Shown piece by piece: positions 1,895 through 20,529 of a stretch of 32,000 bases of DNA. This DNA is from an uncultured Mycoplasmatota bacterium. Lineage in GTDB: Bacteria; Bacillota_I; Bacilli_A; RF39; UBA660. Positions within the stretch are counted from its first letter, which is position 1; the number at the start of each line of letters is the position of its first letter. A program made the translations under genes and the position numbers. The notes under the pieces are model-generated. The model was not told the DNA's origin. It searched no databases and saw only the letters and a list, made by a program, of their open reading frames with translations. Where the stretch lies: contig CAOJBM010000002.1 in assembly GCA_948329525.1 (NCBI GenBank), positions 12,635 through 44,634 of the forward strand, written 5' to 3'.

Positions 1895-2875
1895 TTAGTC
1901 ATTTTTAAATATCAATTTTATTGTATCTTTGACATATTCTTCAACTAATTTACTCTTTTCAATTATTAAAAGCAAATTTATTATATCACCACGATATTCC
2001 TCACAAATATTTTTAGGGTATTCCATTATAGTTTTATAAGTATTCTTATAATCATCACTATCAGCCATACCATAATTTAAATATTTAATAACTTCTTCAA
2101 ATTGATAATTTATAAGTAATTGATATAATTCCCAACTTGATAAATGTCTAGGCATTTTTCTTTGTTCTTCTATTATATCATCTAGTGTCATACCTTTTAT
2201 ATCTTTGATGTATTCATCCATTAACTCAATAACTCCACTAAAATTATCTGTATCAGTTGTTCGATACATAAAATTATTATAATAATCTTCTTTTTTACCA
2301 CTAGGTTTTAAGCCAACCATAGGAATAATATTTTGATAAGACTTATGGACATCTTCATTTAAAGAGTCATCAATCAAAGCAATCCAACCAATATTTAGTT
2401 TATAATTTTCTAAATAATACTCAATAAATGTTTCTACTTTATTTACATTAAATCGAAAATCTACAGGTGTTATACTATTGTATTCATAACTATACATACC
2501 TCCATAAATAAACGAAGTCCCAAAAATAATATTTTCATTTCGATATTTATTTAAAATATCAAAAACCATTTTTATATGAGTAGAAGTACTACTATGTGTT
2601 GAAATACAAATATAAGCATTTGCATTACCAAATTGATTTCTTAGAGTTTCAACTTGTTTCATAAATATTTCTGCTTCTTCATCCGTTATTTTATTACTAG
2701 TTCCTTCTAAATCTAGCATAATAGCGATAGAACGAGGAATAATAATAGGTTCTCTATTTCTAAGATAATTATTAATTATATTGTTATCTTTATTATTTTG
2801 TTTCAAAAGCTTACGCTTTTGATTTTCATAAAATTTTTTCTTTCTAAATTCTGAATTCCAACTGTCTTTTTTCAT
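1895..2875 (-). CDS. hypothetical protein with a basic N-terminus; possibly a divergent HAD-like fold
   Basis: Long ORF with its own TTGAAC-17 nt-TATAAT promoter upstream. MLDLEGT resembles HAD motif I (DxDxT) with Glu in place of the second Asp, and ALIDDS resembles motif IV. I recognise no confident family match. Confidence 0.5.
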   Translation of the reverse strand: MKKDSWNSEFRKKKFYENQKRKLLKQNNKDNNIINNYLRNREPIIIPRSIAIMLDLEGTSNKITDEEAEIFMKQVETLRNQFGNANAYICISTHSSTSTHIKMVFDILNKYRNENIIFGTSFIYGGMYSYEYNSITPVDFRFNVNKVETFIEYYLENYKLNIGWIALIDDSLNEDVHKSYQNIIPMVGLKPSGKKEDYYNNFMYRTTDTDNFSGVIELMDEYIKDIKGMTLDDIIEEQRKMPRHLSSWELYQLLINYQFEEVIKYLNYGMADSDDYKNTYKTIMEYPKNICEEYRGDIINLLLIIEKSKLVEEYVKDTIKLIFKND

Positions 2876-2918
2876 TTCAAAACCTCCATAAAAATTATAT
2901 AATATGCAATATATTTGT

Positions 2919-3434
2919 TCAATAATTTTTAGTATCTTTATTTATAAGGCTTAAGATAAACTGTCTTGTTTCTTTTTCAGCATTTTGACGAATAAGGTCC
3001 TTACTATCTTCAACAAATCTAATTGGTACTTTTTCAGTAAGTTCTTTAAAATTCTCATTAATCCCTTGTTCAATTTTTTTATATGCTGCAATACAATCAT
3101 TTTCATCTTCAAATAATTGAACTATTTCTTCTTTATCTTCTTTTTTACATCTAATTTCATAATATTTATTCACATCAATTATTAAACCACTATTTCCCAA
3201 ATCAATAAAAAATTTATCTATAATGTGCCTTTCATTAAAATTCAAAAATTCTTTTAAAGAATGAACACTTTCAGAAAAAGGACTTTTCTCCGTTATTTCA
3301 TAATTTTCACTTTTATTATCCAAAATAGAATAGTCTTCTTTACTTTCCATATAAATAAAGCCAAGTTCTTTTAATTCTTCTTTTGTATAAAAAACATTTT
3401 TAAATTTATATATTTCAAATTTTTCTATTAACAC
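2919..3434 (-). CDS. hypothetical protein (171 aa, acidic, no recognisable motif)
   Basis: ORF with a GGAGG SD (plus-strand cctcc at 3441-3445) about 6 nt before the ATG. No motif recognised. Confidence 0.5.
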   Translation of the reverse strand: MLIEKFEIYKFKNVFYTKEELKELGFIYMESKEDYSILDNKSENYEITEKSPFSESVHSLKEFLNFNERHIIDKFFIDLGNSGLIIDVNKYYEIRCKKEDKEEIVQLFEDENDCIAAYKKIEQGINENFKELTEKVPIRFVEDSKDLIRQNAEKETRQFILSLINKDTKNY

Positions 3435-3501
3435 TTTATTCCTCCAATCAAATATTTGTTAATTATTATATAATGATAACATTTATCTTTTCAAGGAAAA
3501 T

Positions 3502-3527
3502 AAAAAACCAATACAATTTAGTATCGG
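3502..3527 (-). terminator. rho-independent terminator after the ftsEX-M23 operon
   Basis: The minus strand reads CCGATAC-TAAATT-GTATTGG (one G.U pair) followed by TTTTTT. It lies 45 nt past the stop of the M23 gene. Confidence 0.5.
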
Positions 3528-3571
3528 TCTTTGTAAAGTTTGTTTTTACATTTCAAAAATATATATCTTCA

Positions 3572-4771
3572 TTAATATCTAGATGACCAAGAAAATCCTT
3601 TAGTATTTTTTATACCTGTTACTTTTTGGTCACCAGTAGGAGTTGATTTACTTTGGAAAGTACTATATCTATTATAGCCATTCGCCCCTGATCCTAAATA
3701 AAGTCCAAAAGCTATTGTGTAATGTAAATGTGTTCCAGTTGTGCATCCATCATAATACCACGTAGAAGAATCCCCTCCAACACTACCAATTTGCGTAGCA
3801 GCTGTAACTGTGTCTCCTACTTTAACATTTATGCTTCGCATGTGCGCATACTCAGAAGTATAGGCAACTCCATTAACATAATGATGAATATGAACAATAT
3901 TTCCCCCACAACTATTATGATAGCTTACACTTGCCACTACTCCTGGAGCCGAAGCAAACATTGCTGTACCTGGTGTATTCCCTCCAATATCCATGCCTTT
4001 GTGACCATTATTTCCATAAGCTTGTGTTATTCTTCCTTTTGCAAGTGGTCTTACAAATTTTGAAGCATTAACTATTTTACTATAATAACAATAATCTATC
4101 GAATCATCATCACGACATCCAGCATCTTCATAAGTTTTAATAAGCTCTTTTTGAGCTTTAATTTGTTCGTCATAATCAAGTCCAATACTAGCTAAAGAAT
4201 CAATATAAGCACGCAATTCTTCGATTTTCTTTTCATATTCATTAATAGCTTTTTCTAAAGTTTCATTTTGATTATTTAAGTCAATTTGCAATTGTTTATT
4301 ATCAGCAATTAGTTGCTCTAAACGATGAATTTCACTATCTTGATAACTACTAAGTTGTTCTATAATTGCAGCCCGCTCTAAAAAGTCAGACATCGTTGTT
4401 GATTGTACCATAAATTCTAAATAAACTTTATCTTCATCGATACTTTGCATATAACTAAAAACATCATGTAATTCTTCTGTTGTCTTAACTATTAATGCTT
4501 CACTTTCAATAATTTTTTGTTTTGACTCTTCGACACTTTTCTCATTAGCATCTATCGTATTATTAGCTTCCATAATAGCATTTCTTTTATATTGAACTTC
4601 ATTATTCGCCTGAGTAGATAGTCTTTTATTTTCTCTTTGTTGACTTTGTAGGGCATTTAACTCATTTTTATAATCTCTTAATGTTTTACTATCAGCTTTA
4701 ACATAAAGAGGAGCTACCAGATTAAATAATAAACAAAAACATAAAGTATATCTTCCTAATCTTTTCATCAT
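3572..4771 (-). CDS. secreted coiled-coil M23 (LytM-type) peptidase, an FtsEX-associated murein hydrolase (PcsB/EnvC-like architecture)
   Basis: Signal peptide (MMKRLGRYTLCFCLLFNLVAPLYVKA), then ~200 aa of heptad-rich coiled coil. The C-terminal M23 domain has HKGMDIG and GTHLHY motifs. The start overlaps the ftsX stop by 4 nt (ATGA). Confidence 0.85.
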   Translation of the reverse strand: MMKRLGRYTLCFCLLFNLVAPLYVKADSKTLRDYKNELNALQSQQRENKRLSTQANNEVQYKRNAIMEANNTIDANEKSVEESKQKIIESEALIVKTTEELHDVFSYMQSIDEDKVYLEFMVQSTTMSDFLERAAIIEQLSSYQDSEIHRLEQLIADNKQLQIDLNNQNETLEKAINEYEKKIEELRAYIDSLASIGLDYDEQIKAQKELIKTYEDAGCRDDDSIDYCYYSKIVNASKFVRPLAKGRITQAYGNNGHKGMDIGGNTPGTAMFASAPGVVASVSYHNSCGGNIVHIHHYVNGVAYTSEYAHMRSINVKVGDTVTAATQIGSVGGDSSTWYYDGCTTGTHLHYTIAFGLYLGSGANGYNRYSTFQSKSTPTGDQKVTGIKNTKGFSWSSRY

Positions 4772-18867: not shown

Positions 18868-19311
18868 TCACCTCGCTTTAACACTAACTTTGATTTCTGC
18901 AATTACTTTTTTATGTAATTCTATTTTTACATTATGTACTCCTAATGAGTCGATTGGTAAGTCAAGCATTATTTTCTTTTTATCAACATTGTATCCATTA
19001 TTTTTTAATTCATCAACTATTTGTTTTGATGATACATTACCAAAAATACGACCATCATTCCCTGTTTTGACAAAAAACTCTAAATTAACATGTTCTAATT
19101 TTCCTTTTAATTCTTCACAAGATTTAATTAAAGCATCTTCATCTTGTTTTCTTTGTTCTAATTGTTTATTAAGTTGTTTTTTATTTCCTTCATTAGCAGG
19201 AAGAGCTAGACCATTTTTTATTAAGAAATTATTGGCATAACCTTCACTAACTTCAATTATTTCATCTTTCTTTCCTTGTTTCTTTACATCTTGTAATAAA
19301 ATAACTTTCAT
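18868..19311 (-). CDS. rplI: 50S ribosomal protein L9
   Basis: MKVILLQDVKKQGKKDEIIEVSEGYANNFLIKNGLA is the canonical L9 N-terminus. The size is 147 aa and it sits upstream of dnaB as in most Firmicutes. Confidence 0.92.
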   Translation of the reverse strand: MKVILLQDVKKQGKKDEIIEVSEGYANNFLIKNGLALPANEGNKKQLNKQLEQRKQDEDALIKSCEELKGKLEHVNLEFFVKTGNDGRIFGNVSSKQIVDELKNNGYNVDKKKIMLDLPIDSLGVHNVKIELHKKVIAEIKVSVKAR

Positions 19312-19382
19312 CTAATCACTCCTTAATAAGTCATCTTTCATATTATATCAAATTATATAGAAAAGGGAAATGCTTTAAAAAG

Positions 19383-19406
19383 AAAAAAATTCCTTATTTC
19401 AAGGAA
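19383..19406 (-). terminator. rho-independent terminator (minus strand) insulating rplI from upstream transcription
   Basis: The minus strand reads TTCCTT-GAAAT-AAGGAA followed by TTTTTTT. Confidence 0.5.
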
Positions 19407-19554
19407 GTTATTGGTATATTATAATTATCTAAAAATTTTTAAATTTTACTAATTTTTAAATTATTGTCTAAATATTTGAACAATAATTTAATTTTTGCTA
19501 AACAATAACAAGATTATTGCAAGAATTTCTTTTCAACAATCTAAAAATAGTAAT

Positions 19555-19583
19555 TTTACAAATATTTTTATTTGTGCTAAAGT
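19555..19583 (+). promoter_or_regulatory. sigma-A-type promoter for the small-ORF transcript
   Basis: TTTACA (19555-19560), a 17-nt spacer, then extended -10 TGcTAAAGT (hexamer 19578-19583). The predicted +1 is near A19591. Confidence 0.5.
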
Positions 19584-19667
19584 ATGACCTAGACACGAAA
19601 TATTGTTTAATGCCTTTATTTTTAGTGACTTCTTTAGAGGGTATTAAAAATTTGGAGGTGGATGCAT

Positions 19668-19748
19668 ATGAAGAGAATAATTGATCGATTATTTAAAATC
19701 ATATACATAATTCTATTTATGCAAATATGCTTGCTACTGCATAGATAA
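19668..19748 (+). CDS. 26-aa hydrophobic peptide, candidate type I toxin
   Basis: SD GGAGGTG (19654-19660) lies 7 nt before ATG 19668. The ORF reads MKRIIDRLFKIIYIILFMQICLLLHR then TAA. It has charged termini and a ~17-residue hydrophobic core. It is too short for the ORF track. Confidence 0.45.
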   Translation: MKRIIDRLFKIIYIILFMQICLLLHR

Positions 19749-19816
19749 AATAAACTGATACAGCAATGTATCAGCTCCAACCTTTTAAAGGCAACGAACA
19801 TATTTCGTGTCTTTAT
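19746..19816 (-). ncRNA. predicted ~70-nt cis-antisense RNA (candidate antitoxin), convergent with the small ORF
   Basis: Bounded by the minus-strand promoter at 19823-19851 and the hairpin plus T-tract at 19774-19746. The ends are predictions only. Confidence 0.4.
19755..19774. terminator. perfect 8-bp hairpin just after the small ORF; a terminator for the minus-strand antisense RNA
   Basis: CTGATACA-GCAA-TGTATCAG. On the minus strand it is followed by TTTATTTTAT. On the plus strand the tail is CTCCAACCTTTT, so the T-run starts only 8 nt after the stem. Confidence 0.55.
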
Positions 19817-19822
19817 ATTTAG

Positions 19823-19851
19823 ATAATAACATAGTTTTTAATGTATTTCAA
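19823..19851 (-). promoter_or_regulatory. sigma-A-type promoter for the antisense RNA
   Basis: The minus strand reads TTGAAA (19851-19846), a 17-nt spacer, then extended -10 TGtTATTAT (hexamer 19828-19823). Confidence 0.5.
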
Positions 19852-19857
19852 ATAAAT

Positions 19858-20529
19858 TTAATCTCGGTCATTATTTCCAAATATTAAAATAAGCCTTAAT
19901 ATCTGTAAAGCACTAGCTAAGACACCTGCAACGTAAGTCATCGCTGCACTAGTTAGTATTTTTTTACAACCAATATGTTCAGATGAAACAACTATATTTT
20001 CATCTTCTAATATTTTTAGGGCTCTTTTACTAGCATCAAACTCCACAGGTAACGTAATAAGTTGAAAGATAAGTCCTAACCCAGTTAAAGCAATCCCTAC
20101 ATAAACCAAGTCTAAGGCTTGCATAACAATGCCAATTAAAATAATTATATAAGATAAGCTTGTCCCTAAATTAACTATTGGGTAAATAAGACTTCTTAAA
20201 CGAAGCATAAAGTACTTTTCTTTATCTTGAATAGCGTGACCACATTCATGTGCTGCAATAGCAGCAGAAGCTATCGTTTCTCCATGAAATACTTCACTAG
20301 ATAATCTAACTACTTTTCTTGATGGGTCATAATGGTCAGTTAAGTTGCCTTTTACTTCAACAACATAAATATCTGATAAGCCATGGTTATCAAGTATCTT
20401 TCTTGCCACTTCTTGCCCACTTACTTTCTTTTCTAAGGATTGCTTTTTATAATTACTATAATTAATACTAATAAACATTTGGGCTATAGCTGGAATTAAA
20501 AGTATTAAAATTATAAGTATTAAATCCAT
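19858..20529 (-). CDS. YugP-family membrane zinc metallopeptidase
   Basis: LTDHYDPSRKVVRLSSEV and AAHECGHAIQ (HExxH) motifs. TM segments flank the domain, typical of PF04298-type proteins. Confidence 0.85.
   Translation of the reverse strand: MDLILIILILLIPAIAQMFISINYSNYKKQSLEKKVSGQEVARKILDNHGLSDIYVVEVKGNLTDHYDPSRKVVRLSSEVFHGETIASAAIAAHECGHAIQDKEKYFMLRLRSLIYPIVNLGTSLSYIIILIGIVMQALDLVYVGIALTGLGLIFQLITLPVEFDASKRALKILEDENIVVSSEHIGCKKILTSAAMTYVAGVLASALQILRLILIFGNNDRD

Follow-up and report, generated by a model that had tools for sequence, protein, structure and literature searches.

The window analysed here is a stretch of 32,000 nucleotides (nt) from contig CAOJBM010000002.1, with a GC content of ~27%, and its DNA comes from an uncultured lineage of gut Bacilli. 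Between two of its genes lies a small element that we describe as a probable type I toxin-antitoxin-like cassette. The surrounding genes are on the minus strand in the order gltX, cysS, a Zn_peptidase_2 gene (YugP-like, 19858-20529; hereafter yugP), a 546-nt gap, rplI (18868-19311) and dnaB. As stated in an initial annotation of the window, the gap (19312-19857) is gene-free, with no open reading frame (ORF) of at least 60 amino acids (aa) between rplI and yugP. The cassette occupies positions 19555-19857. It consists of a plus-strand gene for a 26-residue peptide and a convergent minus-strand gene for a short antisense RNA.

The initial annotation listed seven sequence features, and each was confirmed at the coordinates given. 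Three of them, a plus-strand promoter, a Shine-Dalgarno (SD) sequence and a short ORF, make up the peptide gene. The promoter scan returned TTTACA (19555-19560), 17 nt and an extended -10 element TGcTAAAGT (19575-19583), a match of 9/12 with the TG. The predicted +1 is A19591, 8 nt after the -10. The SD sequence GGAGGTG (19654-19660), whose GGAG is invariant in all copies, precedes ATG 19668, and the ORF (19668-19748) consists of 26 codons and a TAA. The encoded peptide, MKRIIDRLFKIIYIILFMQICLLLHR, has basic ends and a hydrophobic core and is presumed to be a membrane toxin. From these positions we infer a peptide mRNA of ~225-230 nt driven by a sigma-A-type promoter. An in-frame ATG at 19662 was rejected as the start: it is 1 nt from the SD sequence, the intervening codon varies (H, R or G), and it is out of frame in the diverged copy L084 described below. 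An overlapping 55-aa ORF on the minus strand (19634-19801) was also dismissed, as it is not conserved. The promoter region of the peptide mRNA is doubled by a 36-nt direct repeat (19474-19509 and 19553-19588, 75% identity); the upstream copy has a poor -10 (TAAACA).

The antisense gene begins at the best promoter match in the region. On the minus strand, TTGAAA, 17 nt and an extended -10 TGtTATTAT (19851-19823) match at 10/12 with the TG. The gene ends at an intrinsic terminator (19745-19777, minus strand), in which the hairpin 19755-19774 is followed by a U-run. The T-tract of this hairpin had been assigned to the minus strand only, and the scan agreed, calling a minus-strand terminator at 19777-19752 plus the T-run. 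It is the sole terminator-like site in 800 nt; shuffled sequences average 0.1. The predicted antisense RNA, the candidate antitoxin, would span 19746-19816 (~65-70 nt, with ends taken from the promoter and terminator positions) and would comprise a 5' stem-loop, a variable linker and the terminator. Its complementarity to the peptide mRNA is complete between the stop codon and the 3' arm of the closing helix described below, that arm included; given the extent of the overlap, this holds if the mRNA reaches 19812. At the level of sequence, a candidate antisense RNA gene is present whose product would base-pair with the candidate toxin mRNA.

To compare this locus among relatives, the neighbourhoods of YugP homologues were gathered at graded identity (numbered here with the prefix L). 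Where YugP is at least 94% identical (L001, L062, L064/65, L071/72, L079-82, L068, L073-78 and L090), the gap holds the cassette at 88-100% identity. In L059/L060 (YugP 88%) the gap is just 130 nt (L059 3170-3299) and holds no more than the rplI promoter and the yugP terminator hairpin, which correspond to the window from 19385-19412 onwards. L061 (YugP 88%) has a 194-aa gene without a Pfam match (gap 3173-3946), L093-95 (YugP 87%) have an unrelated 304-nt sequence (L093 2170-2473), and L054-58 and L087-89 (YugP 87-88%) have another, different sequence (L054 3170-3234). The empty site of L059/L060 indicates that ~445 nt of the window (19413-19857) are an insertion, with the cassette inside it. 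The minus-strand hairpin at 19385-19412, followed by the rplI promoter, is the ancestral yugP terminator and marks the edge of the insertion.

In L084 (YugP 87%, gap 2170-2728; partial copies L085/86) the block is 70.7% identical over 426 nt and is turned around with respect to yugP and rplI: the L084 flanks align with the window lineage on one strand, the block itself on the other. The inversion extends over L084 2200-2621, equivalent to window 19425-19836, and takes in the entire block with its AT-rich spacer and probably the palindromic yugP terminator. A perfect 13-nt direct repeat on either side of the L084 block, TTTTTCAATTATT (2227-2239 and 2650-2662), was considered as a target-site duplication and set aside: composed of A and T only, it could well arise by chance in such AT-rich DNA, and its left copy is inside the part that aligns with the window.

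The position between the two genes would suit a cis-acting leader of rplI, or a 3' untranslated region (UTR) and terminator of yugP, and in the window read-through from yugP would end at the terminator 19777-19752. L059/L060, however, have the yugP hairpin and the rplI promoter with nothing between them, the block of L084 is inverted relative to both genes, and no Rfam leader matched. By this comparison of loci the empty and inverted sites refute a leader or 3' UTR function, and we give it practically no credence.

The window and L084 are well separated, with yugP differing at 36% of third positions and 45% of four-fold sites. L084 nevertheless retains both promoters, the SD sequence, the 26-codon ORF, the antisense-strand hairpin and the 3' arm. 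Its peptide promoter has the same layout (TTTACA-17-TGtTATGGT), and its antisense -10 is TGaTAATAT at the same position. In L092, a remnant discussed below, the antisense promoter reads TTGATT-16-TGaTAATAT. The terminator is conserved in both L084 and L092, and all three sequences have its U-tract on the antisense strand alone. The terminator pair U19756:A19773 has become C:G in L084 and L092, and an A:U pair of antisense stem-loop 1 has become G:C in both. The pairs of the terminator were read by eye; MAFFT places this hairpin wrongly in L084 and L092, and the apparent broken pairs there are artefacts of the alignment. Promoter-like matches alone are not significant in AT-rich DNA (11, compared with 6.3 ± 2.5 in shuffles), and the two promoter calls carry weight because they are conserved in L084 and L092. 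L080 and L068 are strongly diverged upstream of ~19565, with the -35 hexamer and everything downstream retained. The initial annotation had made its proposal depend on conservation of the ORF, the SD sequence and a 13-nt complementarity in related loci; in L084 the ORF, the SD sequence and the closing helix from the predicted +1 are all maintained.

In the window the -35 of the antisense promoter is only 7 nt past the yugP stop (19823-19860), and read-through transcripts of yugP or cysS-yugP would stop at the antisense terminator. Such a yugP transcript would carry the full antisense sequence as its 3' UTR, which is untrue of L084. Since the read-through source is missing there, the conserved origin of the antisense RNA is the promoter within the cassette.

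Comparison with L084 shows coding constraint on the ORF. The L084 ORF also has exactly 26 codons and encodes MKKINQSLVVIIYILLFIIAFLLFHK. It is 69% identical to the window ORF at the nucleotide level, with 25 substitutions and no indels, whereas all five non-coding segments have indels between the two. Thirteen of the 26 residues are identical (M1, K2, I4, L8, I11, I12, Y13, I14, L16, F17, L22, L23 and H25), residues replaced in the core give way to other hydrophobic residues, and the C-terminal residue is basic in both. We simulated 25 random substitutions in the ORF 100,000 times. The start, frame and stop survived in 2.7% of the runs, and at least 13 identical residues were additionally kept in 0.5%. 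The observed hydrophobicity of the core was reached in 0 of 100,000. Within the window lineage the ORF has 6 synonymous changes (including AGA/CGA, CTA/TTA and CTG/TTG), four of them first-position changes in Arg or Leu codons, and 5 conservative replacements (R7K, M18I, C21Y, R26K and D6N).

The plus-strand RNA 19591-19815 folds at -70.1 kcal/mol compared with -37.2 ± 3.7 in shuffles (z = -9.0). The opposite strand folds at -65.0 kcal/mol (z = -6.8). The L084 RNA folds at -65.1 kcal/mol (z = -5.8), with the closing helix, 5' hairpin and terminator hairpin as in the window RNA. The closing helix joins a 5' arm (19591-19618, containing CCUUU at 19613-19617) to a 3' arm (19786-19812). It begins with the 13-nt complementarity pointed out initially, between 19591-19603 and 19800-19812, which is perfect. 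It then continues less perfectly through 19604-19618 and 19786-19800 at 80%, ~28 bp in total. By our estimate a perfect 13-mer inverted repeat with 5 G/C would be expected ~0.01 times by chance in ~300 nt of 27% GC. The helix starts 8 nt after the -10, at the predicted +1, in both the window and L084 lineages. The 3' arm is invariant in all window-lineage copies and is followed by UUAUAUUU (19813-19820), as it is in L084. A further hairpin in the 5' UTR (19618-19651) has an equivalent in the L084 fold.

One pair of the closing helix, A19599:U19804, is A:U in the window, G:U in L080/L068 and G:C in L084. Position 19804 also pairs in a local hairpin (ACGAA 19793-19797 with UUCGU 19805-19809), and its partner there changes too. 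As G:U pairs exist on the plus strand only, the plus-strand RNA is favoured as the folded species. Folding and covariation had been proposed initially as a check on this helix, and it proves to be retained in L084 through compensatory change. The covariation is consistent with a folded mRNA, short of statistical proof.

The initial annotation had also cautioned that the mRNA might stop at the hairpin, in which case the fold-back elements would belong to the antisense RNA only. The caution is largely settled in favour of read-through. Because the 5' and 3' arms covary and the hairpin U-tract is antisense-only in three lineages, the mRNA most likely extends through the hairpin to at least 19812.

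The perfect inverted repeat could instead be read as the 13-bp ends (19591-19603 and 19800-19812) of a 222-bp mobile unit, a miniature inverted-repeat transposable element or similar palindrome whose fold and ORF would be by-products. Both strands fold well, and the locus varies in presence and orientation, as such an element would. Conservation and the presence/absence boundaries, however, pass beyond the repeats and take in both promoters, and the repeat ends show no target-site duplication. Neither the window nor 53 related loci yielded a second copy, and plasmid, phage and viral collections gave no matches. The A19599G change keeps its pairing as G:U in the RNA only, where the other strand would have C:A, and the ORF shows coding constraint. 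We consider a mobile palindrome very improbable.

A pairing between the SD region (19644-19657) and 19775-19788 had been proposed as a second fold-back element. This pairing is present and is used by the minimum free energy fold of the window RNA. As a conserved feature it did not stand: the 3' anti-SD (CTCCAA..TTTTAA) varies within the lineage and is absent in L084. CTCCAA itself (19775-19780) varies more than any other site of the 3' region and reads CTCCAA, TTCCAA, CACCAA or CCCAAAA in the window lineage. The constant partner of the SD sequence is the 5' CCUUU, and the L084 equivalent, CCUUUAA, pairs with UUAAAGG of the SD region. The SD sequence and the AUG are predicted to be paired in window, L001-type, L075-type and L084 RNAs, with probabilities of being unpaired mostly <0.1 in the partition function. 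The prediction holds for an mRNA with its 3' UTR, for one cut at the hairpin and for one whose 3' UTR is masked to imitate antisense binding. In these models, SD sequestration and/or a 5'-3' long-distance interaction is thus a predicted property of the mRNA.

To see how the parts of the cassette vary, polymorphic columns were counted across 15 copies of the window lineage. The count was 0/45 for the start site and promoter of the antisense RNA and 5/65 for its body, which reaches from the stop codon to the 3' arm. The promoter of the peptide mRNA had 4/36 and the 5' UTR had 10/78. Within the cassette proper the ORF evolves fastest (15/81); the AT-rich spacer, at 45/142, varies more than any other segment. 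In the same genomes yugP differs at 25% of third positions and 31-36% of four-fold sites.

The antisense gene is thus the most conserved part, which would be expected if the small RNA were the functional product, as a trans-acting regulator or a mere terminator module, and the plus-strand mRNA were decaying or incidental. The antisense gene also occurs alone in L092 and beside a frameshifted ORF in L079-L082, and in the window and L092 it lies directly downstream of a co-directional gene and doubles as its terminator. This explanation does not account for an ORF that has retained its length, frame and hydrophobicity at 69% nucleotide identity. Nor does it account for the plus-strand promoter, SD sequence and 5' arm, which lie outside the small RNA and are conserved all the same, the 5' arm covarying with the 3' arm. 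We regard a functional small RNA without a functional peptide as improbable.

The peptide has been lost more than once. In four independent assemblies (L079-L082) a 4-nt deletion at 19712-19715 shifts the frame and converts the peptide to MKRIIDKLFKIIYIILYKFTCYCINKIS, replacing its hydrophobic C-terminal half. The RNA elements around the deletion are unchanged. L092 (733-875) carries a remnant of the cassette in another genomic setting, where a GAPDH-like gene ends on one side and an ATPase-like gene begins on the other; both genes were recognised by eye in the translations. The remnant keeps the antisense promoter, the stem-loop, the terminator and a degenerate 3' half of the ORF. The peptide promoter, the SD sequence and the 5' half of the ORF are gone, and the remnant can be described as an "orphan antitoxin". 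The antisense gene was undamaged in all copies, and none combined a whole ORF with a broken antisense gene. Two independent losses of the ORF with the antisense gene spared would be the asymmetry predicted by a toxin-antitoxin pair, in what is a small sample.

The same losses bear on another explanation, in which the cassette produces a small membrane protein without toxicity and a cis-antisense RNA that adjusts its expression; the architecture would be the same, with no toxin-antitoxin relationship. The coding, structural and antisense evidence fits such a protein equally well. The hydrophobic stretch of the peptide is short and interrupted by K10 and Q19, and loss of the peptide is tolerated in the frameshifted lineage. 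On the other side, presence/absence variation, inversion and a second genomic context are typical of toxin modules, and so is repeated loss of the ORF with the antisense gene always kept. Heavy occlusion of the SD sequence and AUG is likewise typical of toxin modules rather than of housekeeping small proteins. On balance we think a non-toxic protein unlikely.

We therefore favour a cassette of a known kind, a type I toxin-antitoxin-like system of a probable new family, and put this at roughly two chances in three. The initial annotation had proposed an unannotated module of this type with a new peptide. That proposal is supported by the constraint on the ORF, the recurring antisense gene, the compensated helix, the accessory nature of the unit and the lack of a family match.

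Several points weigh against it. Promoter-like hexamers are common in the AT-rich DNA of the window. The uncharged stretch of the window peptide is limited to I11-L24, with K10 and Q19 within the core, and the peptide matches no toxin family in Pfam or NCBIfam. The cassette contains no canonical terminator on the plus strand, and the 3' end of the mRNA was placed from the helix and UUAUAUUU. The frameshifted lineage may mean that the peptide is dispensable, and the cassette may have been transferred recently, which would explain the very low non-coding divergence without selection. The copies recovered represent only two divergent lineages with the full-length element and one remnant, and the few covariation events among them carry no statistical weight. 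A single copy was seen per 32-kb window. Finally, binding of the antisense RNA would free the 5' end and the 5' anti-SD of the mRNA, with an effect on translation that is not predictable from sequence.

If the cassette is a type I system, it might work as follows. The SD sequence and AUG would be buried in the mRNA structure, and the folded mRNA would by itself keep translation low. The two arms are inverted repeats in the DNA, and the 5' part of the antisense RNA is consequently a same-sense copy of the mRNA 5' end. It would not pair with the mRNA 5' end or the SD sequence and would compete for the 3' arm. The antisense RNA would bind the 3' region of the mRNA, probably from a loop-loop contact, and form a long duplex. 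With its same-sense 5' part it would displace the mRNA's own 5' end. This would lay the mRNA open to 5'-end-dependent decay and RNase III, as with RatA, SR4, SR5 and SR6 in Bacillus subtilis, whose mode of action offers the most economical model. Because the helix begins at +1, its displacement would also remove the protection of the mRNA 5' end, a step that we add to the model. In its most specific form, the antitoxin would be a mimic of the first 13 nt of the mRNA that unzips the closing helix, with loss of 5' protection and an RNase III duplex as the outcome, in a cassette able to flip or move with the yugP-rplI hotspot. We offer this combination tentatively and hold it to be doubtful as a whole. 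To our knowledge, neutralisation by strand displacement has not been described for known type I systems.

The yugP-rplI gap looks like a hotspot for small cargo, to judge from the loci compared. Among genomes with YugP 87-100% identical it has at least six contents, including an empty site, the cassette, an inverted cassette, the 194-aa gene and two unrelated sequences. In the gap of L093-95 a 12-codon hydrophobic ORF, MKILFYALVFIA (L093 2222-2260), follows GAGAAA and is either another tiny-peptide cargo or a product of chance. In L080 the neighbour of the cassette is not rplI but another gene (2596-3155), a minus-strand ORF of 154 aa or more that is truncated by the contig end and has no Pfam match; the spacer there is strongly diverged. 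Short-read contigs from Logan and ENA (L063, L066-L070, L073-L078 and L082) end inside the cassette, at various window positions between 19505 and 19773. These ends fit strain-level variation or hairpin-related assembly breaks, and they limit the number of full-length copies recovered.

The AT-rich spacer (19413-19554) belongs to the inserted block and is missing from the empty site of L059/L060. It contains an imperfect 38-nt palindrome (19436-19473 and 19474-19511). The spacer is homologous to L084 2200-2330, which has a similar palindrome at 2234-2314. Both palindromes (34-38 nt; window 19436-19511) are rich in CAATAAT/ATTATTG and lie upstream of the peptide-mRNA promoter. An AT-only hairpin related to the spacer palindrome (ACAATAATTTAAAAAT...) occurs 3' of yugP in L054-58 and L087-89. 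The palindrome could be an insulating terminator, or a site for protein binding or recombination.

Further copies and relatives were sought in several collections. Among 53 rplI-anchored loci from GTDB species representatives, the element was present only in L001, the closest relative. A metagenome match, L091 1260-1284 (25 nt exact to 19805-19829), lies in a 387-aa ORF with unrelated neighbours and was discarded as a chance match of a 21-nt pattern. Plasmids and phages, searched by distant-mode blastn, and plasmids, searched by tblastn with the peptide, gave short chance matches or nothing, and four pattern scans of viral contigs gave zero matches. Searched at gathering score, the whole window had no Rfam match; at E ≤ 10, 19250-19920 gave one chance match (E = 7). 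Four variants of the peptide had no match in Pfam or NCBIfam at E ≤ 10, including the Fst/Ldr profile and homologues of TxpA, BsrG, BsrE and YonT.

Known type I families come almost entirely from cultured Proteobacteria, with a few from Firmicutes. If our reading is correct, the cassette adds a family from an uncultured, low-GC lineage of gut Bacilli. There is comparative evidence for every element of its architecture, and the empty site, the inverted site, the frameshifted toxin and the orphan antitoxin are natural "experiments". In this lineage the yugP-rplI gap further emerges from the comparison as a hypervariable small-cargo hotspot.

As in type I systems generally, a small hydrophobic-protein ORF with its own SD sequence appears to lie on a short structured mRNA, predicted at ~225 nt within a class range of 200-400 nt. 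The cassette peptide has the same length as ShoB of Escherichia coli (26 aa), which has a similar basic N-terminus followed by an Ile/Leu-rich core. The ShoB antitoxin OhsC is divergent and non-overlapping (PMC8594479), unlike the cassette antisense RNA, and the host phylum differs.

In Gram-positive type I systems the antisense RNAs overlap the toxin mRNA at its 3' end, and type I toxin mRNAs employ 5'-3' interactions and anti-SD elements (PMC8594479). The B. subtilis antitoxins bind the 3' ends of toxin mRNAs and promote their decay, and RNase III cleaves the duplex (PMC6562991, PMC3834814). Like the cassette, txpA/RatA, bsrG/SR4, bsrE/SR5 and yonT/SR6 set a hydrophobic-peptide mRNA against a convergent, 3'-overlapping antisense RNA. 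They are found in accessory or prophage DNA with the SD sequence partly sequestered (PMC6562991, PMC3834814), and the cassette is accessory too. Their peptides have 30-59 residues, their antisense RNAs ~100-220 nt and their overlaps 100-140 bp, compared with an antisense RNA of ~65-70 nt in the cassette. Unlike theirs, the predicted antisense RNA of the cassette lies almost entirely opposite the mRNA and repeats the sequence of the mRNA 5' end in its own 5' part. The four peptides have no sequence similarity to that of the cassette. In layout the cassette is closest to these four and to SprG/SprF, all of them Gram-positive 3'-overlapping systems.

Fst/RNAII (par of pAD1) and Fst-like systems share with the cassette a peptide of ~30 residues, convergent genes around one hairpin and an mRNA whose 5' end is locked in a helix. 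The par RNAs pair via direct repeats at their 5' ends; the cassette repeats are inverted, which makes the two 5' sequences identical and not complementary. The shared hairpin terminates on one strand only in the cassette, in contrast to Fst. In hok/Sok and aapA1/IsoA1, as in the cassette, a 5'-3' helix closes the mRNA, the SD sequence is occluded, and the RNA may adopt alternative or metastable pairings (PMC8594479, PMC6733600). The antisense RNAs of these Gram-negative hosts target the 5' region or the ORF, whereas that of the cassette would target the 3' UTR. There is no peptide similarity to Hok or AapA1, and evidence for activation by 3' processing is absent in the cassette. By sequence the cassette belongs to none of the families compared. 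Its layout would join a Gram-negative-style mRNA locked 5' to 3' with a Gram-positive-style 3'-overlapping antisense RNA, and this combination leads to a testable prediction on how the mRNA is destabilised.

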